A stretch of 64,000 nucleotides of DNA from Bacillota bacterium (lineage in GTDB: Bacteria > Bacillota > UBA994 > UBA5500), in NCBI GenBank assembly GCA_023436245.1, contig JAEZJZ010000078.1:79758-143757 (forward strand). Reading direction: 5' to 3'. Shown here piece by piece: positions 2,241 to 55,446 of this stretch (position 1 is its first letter; each line of letters starts with the position of its first letter). The notes under the pieces are model-generated. The model searched no databases, was not told the DNA's origin, and saw only the letters and a program-made list of their open reading frames with translations. A program made the position numbers and the translations under genes.

Positions 2241-3710
2241 TCACTCGATGCCAAGGATGTCGCCGGCGATGCGAACATCAACGACCTGTCGGTCACGGAT
2301 TACCACCGAGTCAATCAAGCCCCTAATAGCATTCTGAAGAACCGGCAGCTCGCCGTGCTCCCACAGCCAGAGTGCTTGCTTCGCTTCCTTCTGGATGGCG
2401 GCCGATATCTTTTCTACCTGTGGCGCCTGAGCGCGTGCTTTCTCCTCCGCGAGAAGCTGGCGCTCTTTTTCTATGCGCTCCCGGGCCAGGCGCAGGTCGT
2501 TATCCCCGATCAGGCCGTTCTCATAGGCGGCAATCTGCCTCTGGAAGCGCTGGTCTATGGCGGACTCGCGGCGTACGTACTCTGCTTCCTTGCTGGTCAT
2601 CGCCTGGCTCAGATCCTGGTCACTGACTGTTAGAGAGCCGTCGGCCAGTCGTTCCAGCGTCTGATAGACCGCAACCTCAGCGTCCTCATTCTGCACGTAG
2701 TTGAACCAGCAGCCTCCATTGTGGGCGTAGTTCCGGCAGACGAAGATGTCGCGCTGACTGACCTCAGTCTTCTTGTTTCCGTACTTGCGGGCGTTCATGC
2801 CACTTCCGCAATGTCCGCACACCAGCAGTCCACTGACCCTCATCTTCTTGGCCCGGTCCTTTCCTGTAGGCTTCGGCCTCTGCAGCTTCTTCTCGATAGC
2901 CGCCCATTGCTCCTCGGTGTAGATGGCAGGGTGAGCATCGTCACGGACAATCCATTCAGACTCGTCTCGCCACTGCATCTTGCCTTCCTTGTCGTAGTAT
3001 CTCCGGTTGTACACGAGCTGGCCGGCATAGATCTCATTGCAGATCAGACGGCGCACTGATGTATTGTGCCAGATGCCACCGGAGCGTGGCTTGCTTCCGG
3101 ACTCGTTCAGGGTTTTGGTGATTGCCCGGTACCCGTGGCCAGCGATGTACATATCGGCGATCTTTCGGACGAGTTCCGCTTCCTCAGGAACGATGACCAG
3201 TTGCTTGCTATCATCCAGCCGATAGCCAAAGGGTGCAAAGGACTGATATCGTTTCTTCTTGCTGGCCACCTCAAGCATGGTCGAGCGTACCCGCGTGGCA
3301 ATCATGGCGCGTTCAAACTCAGCGAACGCGGCCAAGATCTGCAGGACCATGCGGCCGATCGGCGTGCTTGTATCGAAGTTGAGGGCAGCACAAACGTAGG
3401 CCGTTTTATGCCTTTCGCACAGGTCAATGAACTGCAGCATGTCTAGCAGGTTGCGGGAGAGGCGGTCGACCGCAACGGTGGCCACGACAGCGACCTGACC
3501 TTGCTTGATCAGGCGCATCAGCTTCTGCATCTGAGGCCGATTCATGTCCTTAGCACTTTCACCTTCGTCGGCAAAGACCTGAACGTTCGCCCAACCCTGG
3601 AACTTGGCGTAGGCGCTGAGCTTGTCTATCTGGGCCTCAATCGAATAGCCTTCCCGGGCTTGATCATCAGTGGAGACGCGAACGTATATGGCGCTAACCC
3701 TATTCACCAT
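2241..3710 (-). CDS. int: large serine recombinase (prophage integrase)
   Basis: MVNRVSAIYVRVSTDDQAREGYSIEAQ is a resolvase-type catalytic N-terminus. Recombinase and zinc-ribbon regions follow (CGHCGSGM...CRNYAHNGGC), then a coiled coil. Start refined to ATG at 3710, with GGAGGTG SD 5 nt upstream. Confidence 0.85.
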   Translation of the reverse strand: MVNRVSAIYVRVSTDDQAREGYSIEAQIDKLSAYAKFQGWANVQVFADEGESAKDMNRPQMQKLMRLIKQGQVAVVATVAVDRLSRNLLDMLQFIDLCERHKTAYVCAALNFDTSTPIGRMVLQILAAFAEFERAMIATRVRSTMLEVASKKKRYQSFAPFGYRLDDSKQLVIVPEEAELVRKIADMYIAGHGYRAITKTLNESGSKPRSGGIWHNTSVRRLICNEIYAGQLVYNRRYYDKEGKMQWRDESEWIVRDDAHPAIYTEEQWAAIEKKLQRPKPTGKDRAKKMRVSGLLVCGHCGSGMNARKYGNKKTEVSQRDIFVCRNYAHNGGCWFNYVQNEDAEVAVYQTLERLADGSLTVSDQDLSQAMTSKEAEYVRRESAIDQRFQRQIAAYENGLIGDNDLRLARERIEKERQLLAEEKARAQAPQVEKISAAIQKEAKQALWLWEHGELPVLQNAIRGLIDSVVIRDRQVVDVRIAGDILGIE

Positions 3711-3940
3711 GAGAGCACCTCCGTGGCGAGTCCAATATCGGTTGGGGATGTGGTTGGTTACCGCGGGTACACATGCCAGCAAGAGAGCTCAAGTGGGGCG
3801 GGAGACCTAGGACTCTCTTCTTCTCTTAGCCTCCCTAACATCCTTATGATAAACCCACTCTGAAGGGGCCATGGGCATTTGAAATCAGCGTTTTGCCAAT
3901 AAATGGCCAGCCAATGATCGGCTGGCCATTTCGGATTATC

Positions 3941-13535: not shown

Positions 13536-14330
13536 CTACTCCATTCTGGACATGCCTTTGCTTACCTTCGCAAACATCCTGATCATGTGCCCAACCTCGC
13601 CGCCATCCAGACCAAACTGGGTGGCGATTTCTATTGTCTCCGCCCATGCCTGGTCTGTCGCGGTCTTACTCGTCAGCAACGCCTTGTACTCCTGATATGG
13701 CGGCGCGTCTTTCAGCACGCCGACCAGGTGACCGATGATGCGATGTTTTCCGGTGACAGGCATGTCCGCATACTCAGGGTTTGCCGCGCGGAGAACAGCC
13801 AGTCCATTCTCACGGATGAAGTACTTGAGGGTGGCAGCCCAAGTGTCATCCTCGACGCCGGCTGCAACGACCATTCCGCTCTGGGCTTCCGTAGCTTGGC
13901 GGAGAACGGCGGTGTCCCCCTCGTGGATCCCGGCCCAGCTCATGCTATCGCCTGAGACGTGCAGTGCGAAGTCTGCGCGCCAGTCTGACGGGATCTCGAC
14001 TTCGCCCTCGAAGTTCTCCTCGGCCAGGACAGGGATGCCGGCTTTGATGGTACCGATGAGGGGAACCACCCGCGGTTGCCCAAGAGCTTGAGAGCTTCGG
14101 GGTAGATTGAGTATCTGAGAAATAGGCCTAGGTTCGTCAGTAGAACCAACGAGATAGTCCATGGTCACCCCGAAGTACTCGGCAAGCTTCTGAAGTGTCT
14201 TGACATCAGGTTGTCGACGACCAGACTCATACGCCGTATACGCAGGTCTGGTGATTCCCAGATGACTCGATAGATCATCTTGAGTTTTCCCTGCCTGTTT
14301 TCTGAGGTAGGACAGTCTACTAGCCAGCAT
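13536..14330 (-). CDS. cI: CI-like phage repressor (XRE HTH plus S24 LexA-like peptidase) with about 60 aa C-terminal extension
   Basis: N-terminal HTH (LASRLSYLRKQAGKTQDDLSSHLGITRPAYTAYESG). GDSM motif present (VSGDSMSWAGIHEGD), and KHRIIG consistent with the catalytic Lys. ATG at 14330 with GGGGGTGG SD. Confidence 0.8.
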   Translation of the reverse strand: MLASRLSYLRKQAGKTQDDLSSHLGITRPAYTAYESGRRQPDVKTLQKLAEYFGVTMDYLVGSTDEPRPISQILNLPRSSQALGQPRVVPLIGTIKAGIPVLAEENFEGEVEIPSDWRADFALHVSGDSMSWAGIHEGDTAVLRQATEAQSGMVVAAGVEDDTWAATLKYFIRENGLAVLRAANPEYADMPVTGKHRIIGHLVGVLKDAPPYQEYKALLTSKTATDQAWAETIEIATQFGLDGGEVGHMIRMFAKVSKGMSRME

Positions 14331-14389
14331 CTCGAGCCACCCCCTTCGCATGACTAACTAATTTTTACTGTAGCTGATTGTTACACAAA

Positions 14390-24153: not shown

Positions 24154-24843
24154 TTAGCGACGACGGTCCGGTAGGAACCACTTGAGTAGAGAGCTTCCAA
24201 CGCTTTCTTGCAGCATATCATTGACAGAGTTATCTACCCTGAGAACGATATTATTGATGAAGCCGAGATAAGCAATAACGTATGGCTTGGTTATAGTTCC
24301 CTCAGGAATATCAGTTCGATGTGCAATCGCGCAACGGTCGGTCACGTAATCGTCCAGCCTGCTCCTTGCTTTGTCTCGACTCATGTTTTTCCAGTGCCAT
24401 GTACTCGTAATATCGTCAATGGCTAGCAGCTCCCGAAAAAGCGCCTGGACATTATCGGTTCTTGGTGTATTGAAGCCAGAAATCCTCTTCCCGATGACTT
24501 CATGACGGTAATCGCTCAAGACTTGCTTCCACCCGTCGCCGGCTAGTTGCCACAGCCTTCTATGATCTTCATCCTTCTTGAGAACCGCACTGGCAGCAGC
24601 CCTAATCTTCACTGGGATTTGCTTGTGGCTGGTGCTCTTCTTCAGAAGGAACTCATATGCCTCGGTGCAGATGTCCTCAACGTAGGCCTCCCAGCAAGCT
24701 GTAATCAGAACCACAGCACTTCTATTAAGCACACTTAGGTCAAAACGTCGACCTCGCTTCGTTCCGCCTTGTTCTGAATGAATTCGCATCAGGGCGTCAA
24801 TATCGGAGCTATTTGCTTTGAAGCTCTCATAGGCCAATGACAT
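24154..24843 (-). CDS. HEPN-family (RiboL-PSP/MAE_28990-like) protein; putative abortive-infection RNase moron
   Basis: Rx4H motif RCAIAH. N-terminal AVVLITACWEAYVEDI pattern. Own AGAGGAG SD. Opposite strand to the late operon and lower GC. Confidence 0.45.
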   Translation of the reverse strand: MSLAYESFKANSSDIDALMRIHSEQGGTKRGRRFDLSVLNRSAVVLITACWEAYVEDICTEAYEFLLKKSTSHKQIPVKIRAAASAVLKKDEDHRRLWQLAGDGWKQVLSDYRHEVIGKRISGFNTPRTDNVQALFRELLAIDDITSTWHWKNMSRDKARSRLDDYVTDRCAIAHRTDIPEGTITKPYVIAYLGFINNIVLRVDNSVNDMLQESVGSSLLKWFLPDRRR

Positions 24844-43169: not shown

Positions 43170-43487
43170 ATGGGGATGGAGTGGGACACAGTTCTGCCCG
43201 CACTGATTGCTGCGGCCGCGGCTGTCAGTGGCATGGTGCTCGGCTGGACAGCCAGGGCAAGGGACACACGACATGAGATCCGTGCAGACGCCGGGTCAAG
43301 CGCAGCCCTGCGCTCTGATGTTGAGTACATCAAGCGTGGAGTGGATGACCTTCGCCTAGACATTAAGGACCAGGGAAGGCGCTTCGATGAACTGGCTGAG
43401 CGCGTGACGCGGGTGGAGGAGTCGAGCAAGCAGGCGCACAAGCGAATTGACCGATTGGATGGTGTTGACCGTGGCGCTGACGACTAG
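43170..43487 (+). CDS. putative holin (single TM plus coiled coil)
   Basis: N-terminal TM VLPALIAAAAAVSGMVLGW. Immediately upstream of the endolysin. Confidence 0.4.
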   Translation: MGMEWDTVLPALIAAAAAVSGMVLGWTARARDTRHEIRADAGSSAALRSDVEYIKRGVDDLRLDIKDQGRRFDELAERVTRVEESSKQAHKRIDRLDGVDRGADD

Positions 43488-44718
43488 GCAACAGTTCATT
43501 ACCAGCAGAAACCGACCAGGCACCAGAATCACGCCGACGAGCGTCACTGTTCACAACACCGCCACGCCAAACGCCACAGCACAGAACGAACGAGACTTTC
43601 TGCAGACCCACCCGGATGCGAAGGTCTCGTTCCATTTTGCCGTGGATGATGCTGAGGCCGTGCAATGTCTGCCACTGGATGAGATGTCCTGGCACGCCGG
43701 CAGCCGGGCTAACCGACAGAGTATGAGCATCGAAGTCTGCGAGTTCGACGACCGGGAGCGCCAGACGATGGCCAACCGCAATGCGGCTGAGCTGGTCTCC
43801 CAATTGCTCGCTCAGTTTGGATGGGGGCTGGAGCAGGTCAAGACACACAAGGACTGGACCGGCAAGGAGTGTCCGCGGAAGCTACTACCGATGTGGGATG
43901 AGTTCCTGTTGATGATTGCGAGAGGGGGAGAAGAGATGAGATTCAAGGATGTTCCTGCTACCCACTGGGCGGCGGGAGCGATTGAGCAGGCGGTGAGCCA
44001 GGGCTGGGTGGGTGGCTTCACGGATGGCACGTTCCGGCCGGAGGAACCGGTTACCCGGGCGCAGGCGGTATCCATGGTCGGCCGGGCGACAGTCTACATG
44101 GCCAATCGGCTGCAGGCCCTGATCGCCAAGTGCAAGCCGGCGGTAGTCAAAGTGACCAGCCGATCCGCCGCAGGCACCGTCCTTGGTGCCGGCAGCATCA
44201 TCACGACTGATGGCTACATCCTCACCAACGAGCATGTGGTTAAGGACCGGCAGGCTGGGCAGTTCTACCCTGACCTACAGGTGCACATCGTGACTGACCC
44301 AGAGCTCTACGAGGTAACCAAGGCATACCCGGCCACGGTCGTCGCCACGAGTAACTGGGATGACCTGGCGCTCCTCAAGGTGGACCTGAAGGGGCTGCCC
44401 ATCCTGCCGTTGGCCAGCAAGACGCCGCCAGAGGGTACAGCAGTGGTAGCAGTGGGGCATCCGTCCGGAATGCAGTATACCAGCAGCGCCGGCGTTGTGA
44501 CTCAAGACATGGCTGTAATCGGCGGGATGATCACGGTGATGCAAACTGATGCAGCCATCAACCCTGGTAACAGTGGTGGCCCGATCGTGGATCTTGGCGG
44601 TCGCATGGTGGCCGTGGCCGTGTCTAAGCTGCAGGACTTGGACAATGTTGCGTTTGGTGTGCGCATCGAAGACGTGCGTAACTTCGTGGCCAAGCATCTG
44701 CCTAACCTAGTTAAGTAA
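43447..44718 (+). CDS. endolysin: N-acetylmuramoyl-L-alanine amidase plus SLH domain plus trypsin-like (S1) peptidase domain
   Basis: Amidase_2 N-terminus (ITPTSVTVHNTA...SFHFAVDD). SLH (FKDVPATHWAAGAIEQAVSQGWVGGFTDGTFRPEEPVTRAQ). Serine protease GNSGGP plus His/Asp. Confidence 0.75.
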   Translation: MTDWMVLTVALTTRQQFITSRNRPGTRITPTSVTVHNTATPNATAQNERDFLQTHPDAKVSFHFAVDDAEAVQCLPLDEMSWHAGSRANRQSMSIEVCEFDDRERQTMANRNAAELVSQLLAQFGWGLEQVKTHKDWTGKECPRKLLPMWDEFLLMIARGGEEMRFKDVPATHWAAGAIEQAVSQGWVGGFTDGTFRPEEPVTRAQAVSMVGRATVYMANRLQALIAKCKPAVVKVTSRSAAGTVLGAGSIITTDGYILTNEHVVKDRQAGQFYPDLQVHIVTDPELYEVTKAYPATVVATSNWDDLALLKVDLKGLPILPLASKTPPEGTAVVAVGHPSGMQYTSSAGVVTQDMAVIGGMITVMQTDAAINPGNSGGPIVDLGGRMVAVAVSKLQDLDNVAFGVRIEDVRNFVAKHLPNLVK

Positions 44719-44756
44719 TCACGGCCGCCTAAGCCGAGAAGAAAGGGTGAGAGATA

Positions 44757-45122
44757 ATGACAACTCAGCACGTGTTGCATATCGCGTGGGAGTGGCGTTA
44801 CCCCCTGGTGGTTGCGCTGCTGACCATCATCTACCTCGTGTTGAACTGGCAGCGGGCCTGGACCAAGCTCAAGGAGATCACACCTCAGCTGATGCTGCTG
44901 GCGCAGAAGCGAGCCAAAGAGCTCCTCCTGGCCTCCGGGGAGGCTCGCATGGCCTGGGTTGTGCAGTACATTATGACCACCGTCTTGCCGGCGTTTCCTG
45001 CATGGCTTCGCCCCTGGTTCACCGAGCAACGAGTCCGCGCATTTGCGCAATGGGTATTTGATACATCACTTGATCTACTGGACGACGGTCAGCTCAACGG
45101 CTCGGCCGACGTGAGCGCATAA
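44757..45122 (+). CDS. membrane protein (holin-like/lysis accessory)
   Basis: TM segments YPLVVALLTIIYLVL and VVQYIMTTVLPAFPAWL. Last gene before a strong terminator. Confidence 0.35.
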   Translation: MTTQHVLHIAWEWRYPLVVALLTIIYLVLNWQRAWTKLKEITPQLMLLAQKRAKELLLASGEARMAWVVQYIMTTVLPAFPAWLRPWFTEQRVRAFAQWVFDTSLDLLDDGQLNGSADVSA

Positions 45123-45159
45123 GGATCCCTCCTCTGTCGGGTGAAAGCTAGACCGGCAG

Positions 45160-45190
45160 TTAACGACGCCCCCGATAGGGGGCCTTTTTC
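45160..45190 (+). terminator. rho-independent terminator ending late operon
   Basis: GCCCCC-GATA-GGGGGC followed by TTTTTC. Confidence 0.6.
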
Positions 45191-45242: not shown

Positions 45243-46121
45243 CTACTGGCTGTCTCGCCTGTCATCTGCTTCAGTGCTTGACACAACGGCGCTGGCTTCT
45301 TGCTTGTGCTTCATGACTTTCTCCAAGTACTCTCCCCAGTACTCCTCATCTCCATCGATATCCTGAAGCCAGTAGTACATGATTAACAGCTCGATATCCT
45401 GCTTGTGGCCCCTAACGAACGGCTTCCTGGAACACTTGGAGAATAGCGTATCAATATTGAAGAGGTTGCCCTTCTGCCTGTGGTCGTAATGGAGCATGCC
45501 ATTACTCAGCTTCTTACGGTGCCTGACCGGCCACTTATCATTGTGTTCGCAGAAGAAGTACGCGTATGAACAGGCGAAGGCTGGCATGCTGACCCCGTAT
45601 TTGGCCTCAGTGTGCTCAATCCACTCAGCAAACTCCGCGGTTACAAAAGGCACATCACGATTTCCAAGAGCGCTTGCTCTGACTCGCTGATGATCTTTGA
45701 TGAAGCGAAAGAGCATTTCTGTTTGGCTCTTCAGATACGGATGCTTCTTTACCAGGCTTGAGTAGCATTCGTAGGACATTGCTCTGAACTCGCTCTCTGA
45801 AGAGTAAAGCAGGAAGAGCTCATCTTCGTCGATGATGCCCCTCAGGAGTCTGTGCAGATAGTGTCCATGGTCTGCATACATCTGCAGCAGCCATTTCTGG
45901 ACATCGCCATCGTACTCATCAATAAGCTTCTGTAGCCGGTTGATTCTCTCCAGGTCAAGTGCATTGCGACTATCAATCTCTGTGATGTCGAGATAGTTGT
46001 TGAAATACTCAAAGACATAGCTCACGCATGCTTGGGTATTGTCAGATCTCTTCGACATATCGAACTCGTTTATCTGATCCTCCTGCTTTCGTTTGGCGAT
46101 ATACTCGTCGATCGTTAACAC
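45243..46121 (-). CDS. hypothetical protein (low GC), partner of the SLOG gene
   Basis: 292 aa with no recognisable domain. Directly downstream of 46205..46747 on the same strand. Confidence 0.45.
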   Translation of the reverse strand: MLTIDEYIAKRKQEDQINEFDMSKRSDNTQACVSYVFEYFNNYLDITEIDSRNALDLERINRLQKLIDEYDGDVQKWLLQMYADHGHYLHRLLRGIIDEDELFLLYSSESEFRAMSYECYSSLVKKHPYLKSQTEMLFRFIKDHQRVRASALGNRDVPFVTAEFAEWIEHTEAKYGVSMPAFACSYAYFFCEHNDKWPVRHRKKLSNGMLHYDHRQKGNLFNIDTLFSKCSRKPFVRGHKQDIELLIMYYWLQDIDGDEEYWGEYLEKVMKHKQEASAVVSSTEADDRRDSQ

Positions 46122-46204
46122 GGTTATCCCTCCTCACCATGCAAACACAAGAGACTTGCCTTCACCTCGTCTAGGTCAACAGACATCCGCACTGCGCCAC
46201 GCTT

Positions 46205-46747
46205 TCACCACCCGTAGAACTTCTTCGGATTGTAGATGACCAGCTCCCTTCCGGCCTTCCTCGCTCTGCAGACAGTATCATAGGTACCGCCTCGTTCCAC
46301 CTCAGTCCAGACAGCAAGAACTAAATCAGCCTGGTCGACCAAGTACTGGTTCCTGGCAAGTAGTTTCGCTGGGTCATATATGCCCACGGGAACCTTGGGG
46401 ACAGCGTACTCCGGAAGTTCATCAACTCGGACAACCTCATCGGCCACATCCAATCGATGCCGGTACCTTTGCCGGTGCTCCGGATCCCAGTGCTGCGCCT
46501 GGTCTGCATACGGCACCGCAGCAACAAGCCGTACTTCCGGGTGTAGCTGTTCCCGAATTTTGGTGCACACGTCAAAAGCCATGCTATCTACGCCAAGTGC
46601 CATACCGAAGAGAAAACGATCAGCCTTGCGTTTCTGGATGAACTCCAGCAGCCGCCGCGCCAGCTCTTGACGCATATACGCATAGTTTCGGTTGGGGCTG
46701 TATCCCCAAAGGCCGGTTGGGCGATGGCCAGTAACAGCTACGATCAT
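46205..46747 (-). CDS. SLOG-superfamily (YpsA/DUF1273-like) protein
   Basis: ATG at 46747 after GGAAGGTGGTG. MIVAVTGHRP...FLFGMALGVD...LVLAVW...GGT matches the Rossmann SLOG pattern. Confidence 0.5.
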   Translation of the reverse strand: MIVAVTGHRPTGLWGYSPNRNYAYMRQELARRLLEFIQKRKADRFLFGMALGVDSMAFDVCTKIREQLHPEVRLVAAVPYADQAQHWDPEHRQRYRHRLDVADEVVRVDELPEYAVPKVPVGIYDPAKLLARNQYLVDQADLVLAVWTEVERGGTYDTVCRARKAGRELVIYNPKKFYGW

Positions 46748-47033: not shown

Positions 47034-49643
47034 TTGGCATTCAAGAAGACACACAAAGCGATTTCCGCAGTTGCAAGTCCAGAGGAGTTGTTCATGGATC
47101 TCAGGAACAGATCTGTCCAGGGCCTGATGCTCCATCAAGGGGACATTCTGCGTGAGTACAAAAGGAAAATTCTCGACTCTGCCGATCCACCGCGGGACGT
47201 TGCTATCGAGTTGCCGACCGGAAGTGGCAAGACATTAGTTGGGCTCCTAATTGGTGAGTACCGACGGCGTGCGCTTGAGGAGCGAGTGTTATACCTGTGT
47301 CCAACCAAGCAACTTGTTCACCAGGTCGTAGCACAGGCGCGACAGAAGTACGGCATCAAGGCTCTTCCGTTTGTCGGGGCCCAATCAGCCTATGATCCGT
47401 CAGACCGTAGCGACTATCTCTTTGGTAGGGCGATCGCCGTGAGCACTTACAGTGGTTTGTTCAACTCCAATCCGTTCTTCAGCAACCCTGATACCATAAT
47501 CCTGGATGATGCCCACGTGGCAGAAAACTACATGGCCGCTATGTGGTCTTTGGAACTGCCCCGGTCGGAGTATCCAGAGGTTTACGAGTCAGTCATCAGG
47601 CTTCTGAAAGACCGAATACCTGATTACCAGCATGACAGAATGTTGGCTGGCGATCCGACGCCCAATGACAGGGCGGTGGTTGACAAAGTCCCCACCCCGG
47701 TCCTTATGGATATTTCGCGCAACCTGATAGCACTGCTTGACACCCGACTCAGGGAGAAGAGGGCGTCATACTCATGGAATGCGATTCGTGATCATCTGGC
47801 GGCGTGTCACCTATACTTCTGTTGGGACGGTATTCTCCTTAGGCCGATTATTCCCCCTACGATGACACATAGGCCGTTCGCTGAGGCCAAGCAGAGGCTC
47901 TACATGTCCGCGACTCTTGGGAAGGCCGGGGATCTTGAGCGCTCCACCGGGGTCAAGCGAGTCTCCAGGCTTAGTATACCGGGAGGATGGGATAGACAAG
48001 GAGTCGGTAGGAGGCTTTTCTTCTTCCCAGAGCTTAGCCTGACCCGAGATGAGACCGATTCCCTTGTGCTAAGCATGATTAAGAAGGTTCCGAGGGCACT
48101 GATTCTCGTCCCTGATAGTCAGTCAGCCCTAAAATGGAGAGAGCTCGTGGCTAGCTCGACTGACTATGCGGTGCTTGGTGCGCAGGATATCGAGACTTCA
48201 AAGGACCCCTTTGTTACCAAGAGACACGCAGTTGCCGTTCTCGCGAATAGGCTGGACGGAATCGACTTCCCTGAAGAGGAGTGTCGCTTGCTGATCGTGA
48301 GCGGCTATCCGCGAGCGACGAACCTGCAGGAGCGGTTTCTGCAGAGCCGAATGGCTGCTGCTTTCTTGCTGAGGGACCGTATCAAGGCACGGGTCCAGCA
48401 AGCCATTGGTCGTTGCACCAGAAGTGCGACCGATTACTCTGCGGTTTGTGTATTAGGGGCAGAGCTAAGCGATACTTTGCTCCACAAGGAAGACCGTACG
48501 CGATTCCATCCAGAACTGCAGGCTGAGTTGGACTTTGGGCGCCACCAGTGTATGGATACTAGCGCGGACGAAATGCTGGACAATCTTCGAATCTTTCTCG
48601 AGCATGGGGACGATTGGGATGCAGCCGATTCTGAGATCGTGCAAATCCGAACGGAGCTTACAGCCAGAGACGATCCTGCTGCCGAAAAACTGCGTCTTTC
48701 AGTTGAACACGAAGTGGCCTACGCATACGCGATCTGGAGAGGTGACTACCCGAAGGCCATTGAAGAGTGTGACAGTTCACTGGCAGCCCTGGTTGGGGAC
48801 GACGTGAAGGGATACCGTGGTTTTTGGAATTACCTTGCTGGTTGTGCCGCGCGTCTTGGCAGCCAGGCGGGACTCGTACATCTTGAACAGGTTGCAGTAA
48901 AGCATTTTCACTCAGCTTCAGCGTGTTCCGATTCTGTAGGCTGGTTCCGGGCTTTGGCGAATGATCAGCCCGGTCAACCAGAAGAGGAACAGGTGGTCTT
49001 CGAGCGAGAGCTTGTTGACGTCATCGAGCGGCTTGAGGCTGTGCTGGATGACATGGGTACCTCAAGTCCGCGCCGATTTGAGAAGGAAGCTAGCGAAATA
49101 CTGGAGCTCCTGAGCTCGACCGAGGCAAAGAAATTTGAGGCCGGACAGGTCAAGCTTGGTACCCTCCTAGGTTATAAGTCGAGCAATACTGATGGAAAGG
49201 CTGGCCCAGACCCCTGGTGGATTGCATCAGACACAGTCTGCTTGGTCTCAGAAGAGACTTGGAGAGAGAATGAGCTCTTCATCTCAGTCAACAAGGCGCG
49301 TCAAGCTGCGACACACGAGAGCTGGATAAGGGGGCACTTAGCCGACCTAAGTCCGAACGCTACCGTAGTGACAGTGTTCATAACAAATGCGACAGCTGTC
49401 GACGCAGAAGCCCTGACCCTCACCCCCAATCTCTACTACTGGGGCATACCTGAGTTTCGGACTTGGGCTGCCCATTCAATAGATGTCGTGCGAAGTCTTC
49501 GATCTCAGTTTCCCGGCCCGGGAGACATCATTTGGAGAGCATTGGCCATGGAGAAGTACAGAGAACATGCCATGGACCCCCTTTCCCTCGTGACCGCGGT
49601 TAAGGATAGACCCCTTAGCAAACTCGAGATCAGAAATCACTGA
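47034..49643 (+). CDS. SF2 helicase (DEAH-like) with about 400 aa uncharacterised C-terminal region
   Basis: TTG start after GGAGGTGAT. Motif I LPTGSGKT, motif II LDDAH, SAT, motif VI QAIGRCTR. No N-terminal HsdR-type nuclease domain. Confidence 0.7.
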   Translation: MAFKKTHKAISAVASPEELFMDLRNRSVQGLMLHQGDILREYKRKILDSADPPRDVAIELPTGSGKTLVGLLIGEYRRRALEERVLYLCPTKQLVHQVVAQARQKYGIKALPFVGAQSAYDPSDRSDYLFGRAIAVSTYSGLFNSNPFFSNPDTIILDDAHVAENYMAAMWSLELPRSEYPEVYESVIRLLKDRIPDYQHDRMLAGDPTPNDRAVVDKVPTPVLMDISRNLIALLDTRLREKRASYSWNAIRDHLAACHLYFCWDGILLRPIIPPTMTHRPFAEAKQRLYMSATLGKAGDLERSTGVKRVSRLSIPGGWDRQGVGRRLFFFPELSLTRDETDSLVLSMIKKVPRALILVPDSQSALKWRELVASSTDYAVLGAQDIETSKDPFVTKRHAVAVLANRLDGIDFPEEECRLLIVSGYPRATNLQERFLQSRMAAAFLLRDRIKARVQQAIGRCTRSATDYSAVCVLGAELSDTLLHKEDRTRFHPELQAELDFGRHQCMDTSADEMLDNLRIFLEHGDDWDAADSEIVQIRTELTARDDPAAEKLRLSVEHEVAYAYAIWRGDYPKAIEECDSSLAALVGDDVKGYRGFWNYLAGCAARLGSQAGLVHLEQVAVKHFHSASACSDSVGWFRALANDQPGQPEEEQVVFERELVDVIERLEAVLDDMGTSSPRRFEKEASEILELLSSTEAKKFEAGQVKLGTLLGYKSSNTDGKAGPDPWWIASDTVCLVSEETWRENELFISVNKARQAATHESWIRGHLADLSPNATVVTVFITNATAVDAEALTLTPNLYYWGIPEFRTWAAHSIDVVRSLRSQFPGPGDIIWRALAMEKYREHAMDPLSLVTAVKDRPLSKLEIRNH

Positions 49644-49903
49644 CACTGCCAGAACCATTTAGCCGAAACCACCTACTCGGAGACAGGCCTCTGAGCAGCA
49701 TAAGAGGATCTCCAAGCAGAGTCGCAAATGAGATAGAATAGACAACAACTAGATACACTTGTCGCCGCCTTACGGTGCGCAAGGGGTAGTCGGTTGGGAA
49801 GGTGGCATTATTCCAGAGGGCCCGCATCCACCGGCACCTTCACTCTTGGAATGCGCAAGCTCGGCGGAACAAGTAATGGCTGATGCCAGAAAAGAGGAGA
49901 AGC

Positions 49904-51688
49904 ATGGAGCTCAAGGAAGGTTATCTTTACGATTTCATCAGCGGAACCCCTGTTCGCGCCACCCCGGAAGAGATAGACGCGGTTCAGGTTTTCTCCCAAA
50001 TGTTAGTTAACGACTATGGCTATCCCAAGAAGCTCATTCAAACTCGTCCGCAATGGCGAGTGAAGGCCAGGCCGTCAGACACGAAGAAGGAGTATCCAAT
50101 AGACATAGCCGTTTTTTCTGATGAGCGCCACACAGAGGACAGCATCCAGATTATCGTCGAATGCAAGAAGAAGACCAGGAAAGACGGCAAGACACAGCTC
50201 GCTGACTATCTGAGATTTTCCAGAGCTCGAGTCGGTGTTTGGTTCAATGGTAAGGAACGCCTATTCCTTCATAAGCATGAGCAGGATGGGCGAGTTGAGT
50301 TCTCTGAGTTGCCCAATATTCCCCGGTTCGGCGAGAGAGTTGAAGACATTGGCCGATTCCGTCGACGGGACCTTAGGCCTGCAACCAACCTAAAGTCCGT
50401 TTTTCGGGCAATCCGAAACTATCTAGCAGCGAATGCCGTGGGCATCACCCGTGACGAAGTGTTCGCGCAGCAGCTCATAAACCTGATCTTCTGTAAGATC
50501 TACGATGAAAGGTTCACAAAGAAGAATGATATTGTGACCTTTCGTGCCGGTACCAACGAGCCTGATGCTGACGTTAGGGCCAGGATACTTGGGCTATTTG
50601 AGAAGGTCAAGTCTCAGTATGATGATGTAATTGATGTTGGCGACTCGATAGTCCTTGATGACCGCTCACTCGTCTACGTAGTAGGTGAGCTGCAGCTCTA
50701 CTCGCTGCAGGATAGCACAAGGGATGCTGTTGGAGATGCATTTGAGGTGTTCATCGGTCCGTCTCTGAAGGGTGGGCAGGGTCAGTTCTTCACCCCAAGA
50801 AACGTCGTGAAGATGATCATCGATATGGTTGATCCCACGCCAGAGCAAAAAGTCATCGATCCTGCGTGCGGCAGCGGCGGATTCCTTGTGGAGGCACTTC
50901 GCCACGTATGGGGGAAGGTGCAGGAGAAAGGCGAAAGCCTGGGATGGCCGGAACACGAGATTGAGGCCGAGAAGCAAAAGGTTGCAATCAGGAACTTCCG
51001 TGGCATAGACAAGGACTCTTTCTTGAGCAAAGTAGCCAAGGCGTATATGGCAATACTCGGCGATGGAAGGGGCGGTGTGTTCTGCGAGAATAGCCTTGAG
51101 TCTCCGGCCAACTGGCATAGCTACACAAGGAATCAGGTTCAGCTTAACGAGTTTGACGTAGTCATTACCAATCCACCTTTTGGCAAGAAGCTATCCATCG
51201 ATTCGGAAGACATTCTTAGGCATTACGACTTGGGTCACAAATGGGACTACGACAGCAGCACTGATACATTTCAGAAAGGCTCGCTCCAGGACAAGCAGCC
51301 TCCCCAAATACTGTTCATTGAGAGGTGCCTGGATCTTCTCAAGGACGGGGGGAAACTGGGCATTGTGCTGCTAGAGAGCATCTTTGGGATGCCCAAGTAT
51401 CGCTACGTTGTGGATTACCTCGAAAAGAGAACCAAGATTCTTGCACTGGTAACCATGCCTGAAGATCTATTCCAGCCTCACACACACGCCAAGTGCTGTG
51501 TCCTAATCTGCGAGAAGACCTCCGATCAGCAGGAAGACCACGAGATCTTCATGGCCGATGTGAAGTGGTGCGGCCACGATAGCCGTGGCAATCCCACTGT
51601 CCGGGTGGACTCGAGCGGCGCGGAGGTTCTCCTCGATGACATCCCTCGCGTTGCTCCTTTATACCACGAAGGGGCAAAACAGAGATGA
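49904..51688 (+). CDS. restriction-modification subunit: N-terminal HSDR_N-like PD-(D/E)xK nuclease fused to gamma-class N6-adenine methyltransferase (BcgI A-like/type IIB-IIG)
   Basis: N-terminus YPIDIAVF...IVECKKK (D/E-x-K). Methyltransferase motifs IDPACGSGGFL and NPPFG. Start could be ATG 49904 or 49883. Confidence 0.6.
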   Translation: MELKEGYLYDFISGTPVRATPEEIDAVQVFSQMLVNDYGYPKKLIQTRPQWRVKARPSDTKKEYPIDIAVFSDERHTEDSIQIIVECKKKTRKDGKTQLADYLRFSRARVGVWFNGKERLFLHKHEQDGRVEFSELPNIPRFGERVEDIGRFRRRDLRPATNLKSVFRAIRNYLAANAVGITRDEVFAQQLINLIFCKIYDERFTKKNDIVTFRAGTNEPDADVRARILGLFEKVKSQYDDVIDVGDSIVLDDRSLVYVVGELQLYSLQDSTRDAVGDAFEVFIGPSLKGGQGQFFTPRNVVKMIIDMVDPTPEQKVIDPACGSGGFLVEALRHVWGKVQEKGESLGWPEHEIEAEKQKVAIRNFRGIDKDSFLSKVAKAYMAILGDGRGGVFCENSLESPANWHSYTRNQVQLNEFDVVITNPPFGKKLSIDSEDILRHYDLGHKWDYDSSTDTFQKGSLQDKQPPQILFIERCLDLLKDGGKLGIVLLESIFGMPKYRYVVDYLEKRTKILALVTMPEDLFQPHTHAKCCVLICEKTSDQQEDHEIFMADVKWCGHDSRGNPTVRVDSSGAEVLLDDIPRVAPLYHEGAKQR

Positions 51689-53160
51689 TCCATTATTGGC
51701 ATAAGAAGAGTGATATCAAAGCCAGGGTGTATATCCCAAAGTACTATGACCCATTCCTAGTAGACGATCTCCAGTCGCTGAGGGACACTCATGACCTGTT
51801 TGTTGTAGAACAGCTTGTTAGCGAGGGTGCCATATCAATTAGCACAGGGCACGAGATAGGAAAGCTGGCTTACGGCACAGGTGATATACCATTCATTCGG
51901 ACATCGGACATATCAAACTGGGAAATCAAGTCCATGCCGAAGCAAGGCGTCTCAGAAGAGATCTATCAGGAGTACGCCGAGTCACAGGATATGCAGGTTG
52001 GAGACATATTGCTGGTGCGGGATGGAACCTATTTGATCGGAACCAACTGCATAGTCACTGAACTTGACAAGAAGTGTCTATATCAGTCGCACATTCTAAA
52101 AATCAGGGTCAACGATAAGGCAAAGGTTGATCCTCGAATACTGTTCCTTGCGTTGAACTCTGACTTGGTTCAGCGTCAGATTCGTAGCTTTCAGTTCACG
52201 GCCGATACCATTGACACAATCGGCAACCGTTACCTCGAGCTGGTGATCCCTATTCCGAAAAGCGCATCAAAGAGGAACGAGCTCTCCGGGAGAATCAGAA
52301 CCCACTTGGACACACGCGAGCGTGGCAGGGCGTTCATAAAGCAAGCCCCAGTTCTAATGGAGGAGGTACTTGAGAGAGGTACAGTTGAGCCAATCCAAGC
52401 CTTCATGGAGAAGGACTGGGCAGACATTCTATCTGACATGAGTCAGAATACCATTGTCTCTGAGTTTGGCCCCTTTCAGGCATTCTGGCAGCGATCAGGG
52501 AGCATTAGGGAAAGAATCTACCTACCTAAGTACTACGATCCTGAGATAGTGAGCGAACTTGCTGGCCTGGGAGAGACTTGCAATTGTGTTTCGATTGGCG
52601 ATCTCGTCAATGACGGCCTGATTCAGTGTTCCACCGGTGACGAAATCGGCAAGATGGCATATGGAACCGGCGAGATTCCGTTCATCCGGACTAGTGATTT
52701 CTCCAGCTGGGAGATCAACCATAACCCAAAGCAAGGGGTTTCGGATGAGATCTATGAGCAGTATGCCGACTCGCAGGATACCAGGAGCGGCGACATTTTC
52801 ATCGTGCGTGATGGCACCTATTTGGTAGGGACATCATGCATTGTCACTGAGCATGATGCCAAGAGTCTGTACTGTGGAGGAATCTACAAGATTCGTGTCC
52901 TGGATGAGTCTGCAATTAGCCCGTGGCTGCTGCTAGGATTGCTCAACTCGTTCATTGTGAAGCGCCAGATACGAACAAAGCAGTTTACCCGCGACGTCAT
53001 AGATACACTCGGTCAGCGACTGTTCGAGATTATCCTGCCGATACCTAAATCAAAGGAAGTGCGCGAGCAGATTTCCGAGCAGGTCAAGGAAATAGTCTTG
53101 TCGCGGATAGACGCCCGTCAGGCAATCTCCAAGTTGGCGGACGAGCTAATAGAGGGATAA
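51685..53160 (+). CDS. HsdS-like specificity subunit with two near-identical target-recognition domains
   Basis: Two halves share long identical stretches (IPKYYDP..., GDIPFIRTSD..., VRDGTYL.GT.CIVTE). ATGA overlap with the upstream gene. Confidence 0.75.
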   Translation: MIHYWHKKSDIKARVYIPKYYDPFLVDDLQSLRDTHDLFVVEQLVSEGAISISTGHEIGKLAYGTGDIPFIRTSDISNWEIKSMPKQGVSEEIYQEYAESQDMQVGDILLVRDGTYLIGTNCIVTELDKKCLYQSHILKIRVNDKAKVDPRILFLALNSDLVQRQIRSFQFTADTIDTIGNRYLELVIPIPKSASKRNELSGRIRTHLDTRERGRAFIKQAPVLMEEVLERGTVEPIQAFMEKDWADILSDMSQNTIVSEFGPFQAFWQRSGSIRERIYLPKYYDPEIVSELAGLGETCNCVSIGDLVNDGLIQCSTGDEIGKMAYGTGEIPFIRTSDFSSWEINHNPKQGVSDEIYEQYADSQDTRSGDIFIVRDGTYLVGTSCIVTEHDAKSLYCGGIYKIRVLDESAISPWLLLGLLNSFIVKRQIRTKQFTRDVIDTLGQRLFEIILPIPKSKEVREQISEQVKEIVLSRIDARQAISKLADELIEG

Positions 53161-53290
53161 CGGACGCTCGGTTGACGATCGATACACCAGCGAGGCCACG
53201 GAGCCTGCTGAACTGATACCTAGACATGATCGCAGAGCGAATCTCCAATCATTGGGCACATCCTGAGAATCTTTGGGAGGCTGATTCCTC

Positions 53291-54331
53291 ATGCCTGTAT
53301 GGCTTATTCGCGCGGGTGCGCACGGAGAGTATGAAAGCAAGTTTGTGCAGGAGAGCAGGATCTACGCAACGTGGGACAACCTCAACGCCGACTTAAGAAG
53401 GATGAACCACAAGGGTGATCTGATCTCCCTTATGGCCGAGAGATACCCTGACGCAAAGAAGAAGGCAGTCCAGAACTGGGCGAGTCAGGTCTGGCCTTTC
53501 GCCCATGAGATTAGCAAAGGCGATCTGGTTGTTCTTCCGTTGAAGTCACAACCAGCGATACAGATCGGAGAGGTAGTGAGCGATTATCGCTTTGAGGCTG
53601 CCGGACCAAGCCCGTTCTATCATTGGCGGTCCGTGAAGTGGATAGGTGAGGCGATTCCGCGAGCCAACTTTGGTCAGGACCTTCTTTACTCTTTTGGCGC
53701 ATTTATGACAATCTGCCGTATACAGCGAAATAACGCTGAAGAACGTATAGTTGCAATGCGCACCAATGGCTGGAAGAAAGAGAATCTGGCTGTCATCAGT
53801 GCTGCCACTCCAACGTCAGTCATCCAGGATGAAGCTGGCGCCGACAACACAGATCTTGAGGTACTGGCGCGTGACCAAATAGCTCAACTTATCTCAGCTA
53901 GGTTCAAGGGGCATAACCTGACCCGCCTGGTAGACGCGATTCTTAGGTCGCAAGGGTATGTCACTTATGTCAGTCCTGAAGGGCCGGATGGCGGAGTGGA
54001 CATTCTTGCCGGCGCCGGCCCGCTGGGGTTTGGCGCTCCGCGTCTCTGTGTTGAAGTGAAGTCTGGTGACGCACCTATTGATAGACCCAGTGTGGATAAG
54101 CTGCTGGGAGCTGTCGCCAAGTTTGGTGCACAGGAGGGGCTGTTCGTGTCCTGGAGCGGGTTCAAGAGCAACGTGCAGAAAGAGTTGGCTGCCAGCTTCT
54201 TTCGGGTAAGGCTTTGGACCCAGACAGAGCTGCTAGAAGCGTTGTTTGCCAACTATGACAAACTGGATGAAGATATCAAAGCGGAGCTACCCTTGAAGCG
54301 ATTTTGGACAGTGGCTGTTCAGAACGAGTAG
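53291..54331 (+). CDS. Mrr-like restriction endonuclease (Mrr_N plus Mrr_cat)
   Basis: N-terminal winged-helix-like region. C-terminal VDILAG...LCVEVKSGD catalytic core. Confidence 0.55.
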   Translation: MPVWLIRAGAHGEYESKFVQESRIYATWDNLNADLRRMNHKGDLISLMAERYPDAKKKAVQNWASQVWPFAHEISKGDLVVLPLKSQPAIQIGEVVSDYRFEAAGPSPFYHWRSVKWIGEAIPRANFGQDLLYSFGAFMTICRIQRNNAEERIVAMRTNGWKKENLAVISAATPTSVIQDEAGADNTDLEVLARDQIAQLISARFKGHNLTRLVDAILRSQGYVTYVSPEGPDGGVDILAGAGPLGFGAPRLCVEVKSGDAPIDRPSVDKLLGAVAKFGAQEGLFVSWSGFKSNVQKELAASFFRVRLWTQTELLEALFANYDKLDEDIKAELPLKRFWTVAVQNE

Positions 54332-54450
54332 TACCGCTGCTCGCTCTAGTATACTGAGCGAAGTGACTCGCAATCGACTCGATAGGGGTGAAGACTGCAG
54401 ATTGACCTAGATGGGCAGAGCCAGAGCTGCTCGCTGGAGGATTGAGGAAC

Positions 54451-55446
54451 ATGGATCCATGGGATAACCTCCCTGAACTGAACAAGAAGGCAGAACGGTA
54501 TCTGAAGAAGGCTCAGGATCTTTTGATGTACTGCACAACATGCCAACCCTATGATCAGGGGCCTGTATGGGTCTTGGGTGAAGAGACGACTGTTGACGAG
54601 CTCTTTGATATCGTTGCCTGCCCTGAGGCCTACAGGGATGACATCGCGGCGCACCTCCAATGCCCTAGCTGCGGCGCAATGATCTCCGATAGATATGCCG
54701 ACATTGGTTTGGAGGACCGGTATGCCAGACACGCCGAGCAAACATATGAGCGTGCGGTCAAGCGCTACCGCCGGAGGATCGATGCTCTGCGTGAACACCT
54801 GAACCACTTTCCCTCACTTGCCCTACACAACGCCTTCGCGAGAACGCTCTTGGCGGAGATAACTGGGAAGAGAGCCGAGAGTGTCTGCATCTCCGAAAGG
54901 AGATGGTTCCGCTCTCGGAACCTCGAGGGGGCCAAGGTATTTGAGTGCGAGAACATGTGGGCTCCGAGTGAAGGGCTGTCACCTGGCGGCCGATTTCATC
55001 ATGCAGGGCAAAGTGTGCTTTATGTTGCAGACTCCAAGGAACTAGCGATCAGGGAATCGCTTGCCAGAGCTGACGAGCCATCACTGATTTGGTATCAGGA
55101 GTACTCTCTCGAATCAGATTTGGAGGACGTACTCGACCTTAGGTATGATTGGGAAAACTATGGACAGATGTCCAATGGTCTTCTTGCCGCCTTGCTGGCC
55201 AGTGGAGTCTTGTCAGAACCTGTGGCTGACAGAAGCAACAAATGGCAACCGCAATACTTTATAACACGCTTCATAGCGGATTGCGCAAAACTGTCTGGCT
55301 ATAAAGGCATCATTTACACATCTACGAAATACGACGGAACTAATCTGGCAGTGTTTGATAGTGCCAATCTTTTCGTGTCGGTTGGAAAGCCTCAGGTATA
55401 CATCTATCGTCCTTCCGAGCAGACAGTGTTCCGATTCAGCATATAG
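54451..55446 (+). CDS. RES-domain protein with about 170 aa N-terminal zinc-ribbon extension
   Basis: GGRFHHAGQSVLYVADSKELAIRE...GIIYTSTKYDG gives R, E and S in the canonical spacing. N-terminus has CTTCQP...CPSCG. Confidence 0.55.
   Translation: MDPWDNLPELNKKAERYLKKAQDLLMYCTTCQPYDQGPVWVLGEETTVDELFDIVACPEAYRDDIAAHLQCPSCGAMISDRYADIGLEDRYARHAEQTYERAVKRYRRRIDALREHLNHFPSLALHNAFARTLLAEITGKRAESVCISERRWFRSRNLEGAKVFECENMWAPSEGLSPGGRFHHAGQSVLYVADSKELAIRESLARADEPSLIWYQEYSLESDLEDVLDLRYDWENYGQMSNGLLAALLASGVLSEPVADRSNKWQPQYFITRFIADCAKLSGYKGIIYTSTKYDGTNLAVFDSANLFVSVGKPQVYIYRPSEQTVFRFSI

Follow-up and report, generated by a model that had tools for sequence, protein, structure and literature searches.

The stretch of DNA analysed here (64,000 nucleotides, in the following the window) carries a prophage, whose terminase, portal, head and tape-measure genes are found at 25.5-39.6 kb (PHROGs) and whose left end encodes a CI-like repressor and a serine recombinase. 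An endolysin gene, a small ORF and a strong hairpin, which a terminator scan picked out as terminator-like, mark where the late operon of the phage stops, and the cargo region starts just beyond the hairpin (table 1). Four ORFs follow, at exactly the coordinates given in the original prediction, and their Pfam and motif matches, all of them far beyond chance, bear out the domains that had been named there. Upstream of the first ORF, which encodes a helicase, lies a YpsA-like gene, with divergent transcription, and the last one is followed by the gene of a RES-domain protein, which gives no match in PADLOC and is a neighbouring cargo gene outside the restriction modules. The space between the lysis cassette and the host DNA is the usual site of prophage cargo; the interval with the four ORFs is probably part of a defence island lying in this position, at the end of a temperate prophage of ~50 kb, and holds three functionally independent modules.

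Table 1. Features of the cargo region and of the adjoining prophage end (positions in the window).
Feature	Position	Strand	Basis or remark
Prophage context: endolysin, small ORF, hairpin	43447..45183	+	PHROGs amidase/endolysin; terminator scan
Endolysin	43447-44718		
Terminator-like hairpin	45168-45183		Terminator scan
Four-ORF cluster	47034-54331	+	
Hna-type helicase-nuclease, 869 aa	47034..49643	+	PADLOC PDC-S28; stand-alone defence gene
SF2 (XPD/DinG-like) helicase core, residues 38-474	47145..48455	+	Pfam DEAD, ResIII, Helicase_C_2
C-terminal PD-(D/E)xK-like nuclease domain, residues ~686-869	49089..49640	+	Profile alignment to Hna NUC domain
RM ORF, full extent	49883-51688		
RM subunit, 594 aa from ATG 49904: PD-ExK nuclease, helical connector, gamma-class N6-adenine methyltransferase	49904..51688	+	
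RM + S unit	49904-53160		
Specificity (S) subunit, 491 aa	51685..53160	+	PADLOC Specificity_I in two stretches; Pfam Methylase_S
S recognition-domain halves	51685-52419, 52420-53160	+	
PUA-like reader (DUF8426) + Mrr_cat nuclease, 346 aa	53291..54331	+	PADLOC PDC-S02
DUF8426 reader	53291-53764	+	
Mrr_cat nuclease	53900-54241	+	
RES-domain protein, 170-aa N-terminal extension	54442..55446	+	Pfam RES E = 2.2e-13

The helicase is matched over its full length by the PADLOC profile PDC-S28 (E = 1.5e-102), and the profile of its own family (alignment A1) finds Hna (PDB 10uj/9yhn) with E = 4.3e-60, the aligned parts being residues 12-589 and 676-796. Furthermore, Foldseek ranks the Hna monomer first for its AF2 model (pLDDT 84.5; match with E = 8.7e-37, TM 0.63/0.66), ahead of XPD, DinG and CasDinG; profile and model alike match Hna along almost the entire chain. 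In genomes of the Bacillus cereus group, proteins that PADLOC assigns to PDC-S28 go under the name of Hna in DefenseFinder (PMC11811056, supplement). On these grounds, i.e. sequence profiles and a predicted fold, the protein is assigned to the Hna/PDC-S28 family of stand-alone helicase-nucleases. Its SF2 core (Pfam DEAD/ResIII at residues 38-164 and Helicase_C_2 at 401-474) has intact motifs, which are invariant in alignment A1: Q35 of the Q motif, the Walker A sequence GSGKT at 63-67, DDAH at 158-161 and GRCTRS, with the arginine finger, at 459-464. The original prediction had placed motif I at about residue 62 and had noticed the lack of an HsdR-type N-terminal nuclease; both statements hold, as no N-terminal nuclease is found by Pfam. 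The TTG start is supported by the conservation of the first 20 residues among the homologues, with the consensus MAFK... and with P16 and D22 invariant.

The C-terminal region of about 400 residues, originally taken to be uncharacterised, turned out to contain a nuclease domain of the Hna type, as seen by both profile alignment and Foldseek. P725, D726 and E740 align with P712, D713 and E727 of Hna, which include the metal ligands, and are invariant or nearly so in the family, but the position of K729 of Hna is taken by T742, so that the catalytic lysine of the ExK motif is missing. Among 71 genome homologues, this position is mostly occupied by His (54), followed by Tyr (7), Lys (6), Phe (2), Ala and Ser (1 each). 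Because the catalytic residues of Hna include K729, and the K729A variant is nuclease-dead (PMC13381803), the nuclease of this copy may act differently or be impaired, and the replacement of this Lys in the PDC-S28 clade, typically by His and here by Thr, could imply a different chemistry or regulation. In other respects, the protein resembles Hna of Sinorhizobium meliloti (PDB 9yhn, 9ykj, 10uj), namely in being a single chain of ~850 aa with an XPD/DinG-like SF2 ATPase, a helical middle part and a C-terminal PD-(D/E)xK domain, in keeping the P-D and E metal ligands, and in being encoded by a stand-alone gene found in variable defence islands. It differs from Hna, besides the lysine, in the overall sequence (~20% identity) and in the presence of a SIR2-like gene directly downstream in about one-eighth of the loci of its clade. 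No neighbour is common to more than 10 of 80 loci, which fits a single-gene system without an obligatory partner.

The second gene had been described as a nuclease-methyltransferase fusion, and this is confirmed by the Pfam domains HSDR_N_2 (residues 35-147) and N6_Mtase (279-561) of the encoded RM subunit. The ORF extends further upstream, but a GAGGAG ribosome-binding site and the same call in the source record make the ATG at 49904 the most likely true start. The motifs of the nuclease (PEE at 28-30, D74 and E93-x-K95) and of the methylase (DPACGSGGF at 326-334, which is motif I, and then NPPF at 430-433) are invariant across the family, down to 28% identity. The best solved relative is the RM protein of BsaXI (8w0p), found with E = 1.3e-25 by the single sequence and with E = 3.7e-58 by a profile, although the latter match covers the connector and methylase regions, while the nuclease domain scores an insignificant 1.2 bits; in the weak alignment of the nuclease domains D90, E105 and K107 align, whereas the fourth catalytic residue of BsaXI, E73, is left without a clear counterpart. 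With BsaXI and BcgI the protein shares the order PD-ExK nuclease, helical connector and gamma N6A methylase, the separate S subunit with two target recognition domains (TRDs) and the lack of a motor, the likeness to BcgI being architectural. Unlike the BsaXI protein (916 aa), the 594-aa RM subunit is too short to hold the knob and paddle; BcgI A has ~637 aa, which would place RM in a BcgI-like size class.

The start of the S gene overlaps the stop of the RM gene by 4 bases, and the two form a translationally coupled two-gene unit. The duplication of the TRDs noticed originally is borne out by the 51% identity of the two halves of S over 227 aa, and suggests, since the two TRDs are so similar, that the recognition site is of a near-symmetric kind. 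All related loci for which downstream DNA is available have, 3' of the RM gene, either an S gene or a single TRD in fused form; in a related clade, RM and one TRD are fused in a single chain of ~830 aa. The family is very widespread, with 70-85% identity across phyla, and the pair is found alone between housekeeping genes of Bacillus halotolerans (a clean insertion), beside an integrase gene in Pantoea, and in the Mycobacterium prophage prophiGD51-2, of which it makes up genes 13 and 12. Judged from the sequences, RM and S are probably a BcgI/BsaXI-like, type IIB-like restriction-modification pair, in agreement with the original reading.

The product of the fourth gene matches PDC-S02 of PADLOC with E = 6e-153. 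The Mrr-type nuclease that had been recognized in it is there (Pfam Mrr_cat at residues 204-317, E = 2.1e-22, with D237, E255 and K257 of the PD-(D/E)xK motif invariant), but its N-terminal part, which has a PUA/EVE/YTH-like reader fold, had been missed. The protein is a putative endonuclease of the modification-dependent, type IV-like kind. Its architecture, with a PUA/SRA-like beta-barrel reader at the N-terminus and a PD-(D/E)xK nuclease at the C-terminus, is also that of MspJI and AspBHI, although no similarity to MspJI can be detected at the sequence level, and, in contrast to the winged helix of Escherichia coli Mrr, the DUF8426 reader is nearer to the EVE (PH1033) and YTH folds. As to gene order, the likeness is to E. 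coli K-12, where mrr adjoins hsdRMS: genes of this family often adjoin hsd genes, being found after classical hsdM/S operons or inside an hsd operon, and also after BREX-1 or alone.

That the arrangement is not a canonical hsdRMS, BREX or DISARM layout was correctly stated in the original prediction, which went on to propose a single composite, i.e. a translocase-coupled system or a shuffled type I variant. A type I (hsdRMS) assignment was rejected in that no HsdR motor is linked to M/S and the helicase is Hna-like with a C-terminal nuclease; type ISP enzymes (LlaGI/LlaBIII) were rejected in view of four separate genes, a motor of another family and the lack of co-inheritance. The activities of a type ISP enzyme, namely an Mrr-type nuclease, an SF2 ATPase, a gamma methylase and a TRD, are indeed all encoded on one strand within 7.3 kb, and a split type ISP-like or shuffled type I system, in which the helicase moves RM/S and Mrr cuts, might be imagined on this basis. 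However, the helicase is of the XPD/DinG/Hna kind, has a nuclease of its own and is neither an HsdR nor a type ISP motor. Furthermore, the co-occurrence of this helicase family with BcgI-like genes, suggested as a check in the original prediction, is not observed: in 80 genomes, the 10 kb on either side of the helicase gene contain no close homologue of RM, S, Mrr or RES, nor is any neighbour universal, and no helicase relative is found in ~45 loci with the methylase family. A 240-bp spacer separates the helicase gene from that of RM, to be compared with the 4-base overlap of RM and S, and this, together with the very unequal identities of the closest relatives (50% for the helicase, 85% for RM and 77% for Mrr), points to different histories of the modules. 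The composite is already contradicted by these comparative data and is very improbable; the helicase is part of a separate, neighbouring system, which is an outcome that the original prediction had itself named as a refutation. The four genes may conceivably be co-transcribed, given that they lie on the same strand and that the scan detects no convincing terminator between them. The reading that we favour, and consider quite likely, is that of three independently mobile anti-phage modules placed side by side, in which the helicase has no role in driving the restriction enzyme.

A narrower association, in which RM, S and the reader-Mrr protein are one three-gene system with Mrr as an accessory or back-up effector or even as the main nuclease, is another possibility. 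Mrr might then be set free or switched on by a block of the RM complex, in the manner of PrrC and EcoprrI. S and Mrr share one strand, a gap of 130 bp and no detected terminator lying between them, and comparable arrangements are met elsewhere: in locus L086, the genes of an operon-like order RM (711 aa)-S-X-Mrr overlap or are 8 bases apart, on a Salipiger plasmid the start or end of S is overlapped by Mrr, and in L136 and L141 Mrr stands 3'-terminally in hsd operons. DUF8426 ORFs are also found 12 bp after, or overlapping, an RMS gene in L098 and L100, and 6/11 independent Mrr contexts have an m6A methylase at a distance of up to 7 kb, to be compared with 11/80 for Hna and a distance of up to 10 kb (Fisher p = 0.005, in a small sample of contexts picked for long contigs). 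From this enrichment and from the L098 and L100 ORFs it follows that the Mrr module may not be fully independent of the RM + S module. Yet most RM + S contexts (e.g. B. halotolerans) are devoid of a DUF8426 or Mrr gene, RM retains an invariant PD-ExK motif of its own, and Mrr genes are also met singly or 3' of BREX-1 and have unrelated methylase families as partners, so that the three-gene system is unlikely. Even less credible is a further possibility, namely that RM and S are a reduced MADS (methylation-associated defence) system instead of a type IIB one. MAD2 has the same whole architecture as RM, an HSDR_N-like domain followed by an N6 methylase, and its NCBIfam profile matches nearly the whole protein with 413 bits (E = 1.7e-123); MAD5 is an S-type subunit and matches S with 74 bits (E = 9.5e-21); and mad2 and mad5 of PADLOC also match RM and S. 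These scores fall well short of the curated cutoffs (720 and 400), the six further mad genes are absent, with no other mad match, and the RM + S pair is found alone in other genomes; mad3, 4 and 6-8 are required for MADS defence (preprint 10.1101/2023.03.30.534895). That the pair is a MADS-type system is most improbable.

With three separate modules, a different route of attack can be proposed for each one of them. By analogy with S. meliloti Hna, the Hna-family protein would be held inactive by ATP until infection is perceived, e.g. through a phage SSB, and would then degrade single-stranded DNA in the 3'-5' direction, with abortion of the infection. The two-TRD S subunit would place two RM copies on a bipartite, probably near-symmetric site, and the complex, which would need no motor, would either methylate self DNA or cut DNA that is unmethylated; the (RM)2S stoichiometry and the double-sided cutting are modelled on BsaXI and BcgI, whereas the architecture itself is directly apparent. 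Likewise, the reader and nuclease domains are evident in the candidate reader-Mrr nuclease, which would cut DNA containing modified bases and, in doing so, could cover those phages that escape RM + S through the modification of their DNA.

Thus, the locus is an ordinary defence island carried as prophage cargo, in which three known kinds of defence (Hna, a BcgI/BsaXI-like RM + S pair and a reader-Mrr nuclease) are assembled; the stacking of defence cargo 3' of the lysis genes is a frequent way for prophages to arm their hosts. A word of caution is that adjacency on one strand within a defence island does not mean that the genes form one system. That the DUF8426 reader-nuclease is a recurrent third component of m6A-methylase systems, both type I and type IIB-like, is unlikely; if so, its role could be that of an effector reading the methylation state, or of one that is unleashed by the inhibition of the methylase complex. 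Two points could repay work: the compact RM + two-TRD S pair and the forms in which RM is fused to a single TRD would be a convenient source of new specificities, and the PDC-S02 reader-nuclease is preferentially tied to methylase-based systems.

The four open reading frames (ORFs), encoding a helicase, a nuclease-methylase (RM), a specificity subunit (S) and a reader-nuclease (Mrr), were found exactly where the original prediction had placed them, all on the forward strand, and every domain that it named was recovered by Pfam: DEAD/ResIII at residues 38-164 and Helicase_C_2 at 401-474 of the helicase, in which the Walker A motif occupies residues 63-67; HSDR_N_2 at 35-147 and N6_Mtase at 279-561 of RM, with the nuclease motif D74...E93-x-K95 and the methylase motifs DPACGSGGF (326-334) and NPPF (430-433); Methylase_S in S; and Mrr_cat at 204-317 of Mrr. 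The duplication of the target recognition domains (TRDs) of S was likewise borne out, the two halves being 51% identical over 227 aa. As judged from homologues, in which the first 20 residues are kept, a TTG codon is the supported start of the helicase gene. For RM, the most likely start is the ATG at 49904, preceded by a GAGGAG ribosome-binding site; the recorded gene begins at M8 of the longest ORF, giving a 594-aa form, which is the only one with an exact database match. Promoter and terminator scanning gave counts not above those of shuffled sequence, apart from one strong hairpin, and cannot settle the transcription units.

Features of the prophage, its cargo genes and their surroundings (nt unless kb is given)
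Feature	Position	Strand	Location or basis
Large serine recombinase	2241-3782		Prophage left end
McrB-like/HNH protein, 415 aa	5918-7165	+	Left cargo arm
CI-like repressor	13536-14351		Prophage left end
HEPN RiboL-PSP protein	24154-24843	-	Just upstream of terminase gene
Terminase, portal, head, tape-measure and tail genes	25.5-42 kb
Amidase endolysin	43447-44718
Strong hairpin terminator	45168-45183		After endolysin; terminator scan
YpsA/SLOG-family gene, then 292-aa ORF	45243-46747	-	Divergent from helicase gene
Helicase, 869 aa	47034-49643	+	ORF call
RM, 601 aa as longest ORF	49883-51688	+	ORF call
S subunit, 491 aa	51685-53160	+	ORF call
Mrr, 346 aa	53291-54331	+	ORF call
RES-domain protein, 334 aa	54442-55446	+
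SLH-domain surface protein, 1456 aa	58493-62863	+

The window, which is part of a 281-kb metagenome scaffold, carries a temperate prophage. The lysis genes and the hairpin come before the four-gene cluster, and G+C drops from ~0.59 to 0.50 over 45-55 kb; the cluster therefore lies in the cargo region behind the lysis cassette, where its neighbours are a gene of the YpsA/SLOG family and one for a RES-domain protein. No attachment site was recognised when direct repeats and tRNA genes were looked for, so that the right boundary of the prophage is narrowed only to between 55.4 and 57.1 kb.

Several other genes of the window deserve mention. The McrB-like protein, which combines an N-terminal DNA-binding domain (PF12102, E = 4e-49) with an HNH nuclease, is a further type IV-like restriction candidate within the same prophage, and the HEPN RiboL-PSP gene (E = 2.5e-15), lying on the strand opposite to that of the terminase gene, may serve the prophage as an abortive-infection or toxin gene of the RNase type. 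The YpsA/SLOG-family gene (called as 180 aa, 46205-46747) and the adjacent ORF, which has no family match, may be another small cargo module. The RES-domain protein has an N-terminal extension of ~170 aa with a zinc-ribbon-like motif and, in contrast to classical RES-Xre pairs, its gene is not adjoined by that of an Xre-type antitoxin. Finally, in the gene of the SLH-domain protein a unit of 480-486 nt stands in four to five tandem copies with 62-95% identity.

The helicase is a Hna-type helicase-nuclease. Its full-length sequence matches PDC-S28, a candidate single-gene defence family of PADLOC (E = 1.5e-102), and in surveyed genomes of the Bacillus cereus group the same proteins are PDC-S28 according to PADLOC and Hna according to DefenseFinder (PMC11811056, supplementary file 6). 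From 29 homologues sharing 44-51% identity with the helicase a profile was built, which matches the solved Hna of S. meliloti (PDB 10uj, 9yhn, 9ykj) with E = 4.3e-60 over residues 12-589 and 676-796, the second stretch being the C-terminal PD-(D/E)xK nuclease of Hna. The closest fold to the AlphaFold model (mean pLDDT 84.5) is that of the Hna monomer (E = 8.7e-37, TM 0.63/0.66), followed by XPD, DinG and CasDinG. Pfam being silent on the C-terminal 180 aa (no match at E <= 1), the fold of the C-terminus was assigned from structure prediction. On the basis of the profile and structure matches, the 400 aa previously considered uncharacterised are thus a helical region and a nuclease domain. Hna, for which PMC13381803 and PMC12445080 served as background, is a stand-alone abortive-infection protein with 3'-5' ssDNA exonuclease activity; ATP keeps it auto-inhibited, and a phage SSB activates it (PMC13381803). 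P725, D726 and E740 of the helicase stand where Hna has P712, D713 and E727, whereas the position of Hna K729, the mutation of which inactivates Hna (PMC13381803), is taken by T742; across the clade this position is occupied by His in 54 of 71 genomes, by Tyr in 7 and by Lys in only 6.

The surroundings of the helicase gene were surveyed up to 10 kb away on either side in the genomes of 80 species. None of the 80 loci encodes a close homologue of RM, S, Mrr or the RES protein, some unrelated N6 methylase being present at 11 of them, and about 45 loci carrying RM relatives contained no helicase homologue. Clustering of 1220 ORFs around the helicase revealed no partner in more than 10 loci, the genes met most often being that of a SIR2-like protein, right after the helicase gene, and those of HsdR and HsdM. 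The nearest relatives are 50% identical for the helicase, 85% for RM and 77% for Mrr, and these unlike identities, together with the lack of co-occurrence, imply that the genes of the cluster have different histories. The helicase belongs to an unrelated adjacent system of the Hna type, which, by the original prediction's own terms, refutes the single, composite, translocase-coupled restriction system that it had put forward; the co-occurrence of the helicase family with BcgI-like genes, which it had proposed to look for, is absent from both sets of loci. In 9-10 of the 80 genomes, a SIR2_2-domain protein of ~1050 aa is encoded on the same strand, ~60 bp (median) 3' of the Hna-type gene (e.g. 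L063:2874-6074 and about nine others among the helicase loci L001-L080), which suggests a two-gene variant.

RM and S are predicted to form a self-contained type IIB-like enzyme, and the BcgI-like reading of the pair has held up: among solved proteins it is closest to the type IIB enzyme RM.BsaXI (E = 1.3e-25 for the single sequence; E = 3.7e-58 for the profile, over connector and methylase), which scores well above type I M subunits, and the pair stands alone elsewhere. Indeed, in Bacillus halotolerans RM and S occur by themselves, flanked by rlmH and a FBPase gene, in Pantoea they adjoin an integrase, and in the Mycobacterium prophage prophiGD51-2 they are genes 13 and 12. BsaXI acts as (RM)2S without a motor, by means of the catalytic residues E73, D90, E105 and K107 (PMC11997821); in a nuclease-domain alignment that is not significant, the last three have counterparts in the window RM, whereas E73 has no clear one. 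The PEE...D...ExK and methylase motifs are invariant in RM relatives, down to 28% identity. The family is large and remarkably uniform, showing 70-85% identity from Bacillota to Pseudomonadota and beyond. In all loci that extend far enough, RM is followed by an S gene that overlaps it by 4 bases, as in the window, save in a clade 54-60% identical to RM, in which a single TRD is fused to yield RM-TRD chains of ~830 aa (820-860 aa; e.g. L091, L093, L098, L100, L102 and others). The family switches between RM with a two-TRD S and the RM-TRD fusion and, since single-TRD fusions exist, the S of the window seems to have arisen from such a unit by tandem duplication.

Other multi-gene systems were considered and rejected. 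Both type I and type ISP systems fail on the motor, which comes from the wrong family and is not inherited together with RM and S, and type ISP also because the activities reside on four separate genes rather than on one polypeptide. MAD2 and MAD5 of MADS are relatives of RM and S, but they score below the cutoffs and the remaining mad genes are absent. No PADLOC component model of BREX or DISARM matches any of the four proteins, the sole BREX-named matches being those of the NCBIfam PglX methyltransferase, below cutoff, on the methylase domain of RM; for MANTIS/Gao_RL there is no named match among the PADLOC matches listed.

The Mrr gene product is a reader-nuclease, which matches the PADLOC family PDC-S02 (E = 6e-153) and has the precomputed Pfam architecture DUF8426 (PF28530) + Mrr_cat. 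Its N-terminal 167 aa gave no match (E <= 1) in the Pfam release searched, and the fold of this part was assigned from structure prediction. The model, in which the N-terminal domain has pLDDT >90, finds AspBHI and MspJI as top Foldseek matches, and the architecture is that of modification-dependent endonucleases, for which Mrr is a candidate. A scan of viral contigs with the Mrr protein yielded no relatives.

By one and the same test, an N6 methylase lies within 7 kb in 6 of 11 independent Mrr contexts versus 11 of 80 Hna contexts (within 10 kb), giving an odds ratio of 7.5 and p = 0.005 on a small and non-random sample. The contexts of Mrr vary. Mrr is found behind a distant HSDR_N-methylase, an S gene and one unknown gene (L086), at the end of hsdR-M-S-AAA operons (L136 and L141), between hsdS and hsdR on a Salipiger plasmid, ahead of hsdR in Methylomonas, a few kilobases downstream of hsdM/S (L142) and behind BREX-1 in B. 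mycoides, and it is solitary in four cases. In the two unrelated hsd operons, the same gene pair, encoding an AAA_15/AAA_21 ATPase of ~530-560 aa and an unknown protein of ~290-350 aa, separates hsdS from the PDC-S02 Mrr gene (L136:4559-6992 and L141:4023-6748). The methylase enrichment favours a real functional coupling of Mrr to RM and S, as does the different DUF8426-domain protein encoded directly 3' of the RMS gene in the RM-anchored loci L098 and L100 (hhalign probability 96.8%), such a domain being found in 0 of the 1220 Hna-neighbour ORFs; however, a DUF8426 gene is missing from most RM + S loci, and coupling is given a minority chance. We read the position of Mrr beside RM and S as co-selection of complementary defences, which stand side by side also in the hsd-mrr region of E. 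coli K-12. Taken as a whole, the region is a defence island of the ordinary kind, carried by a prophage and composed of new members of known families.
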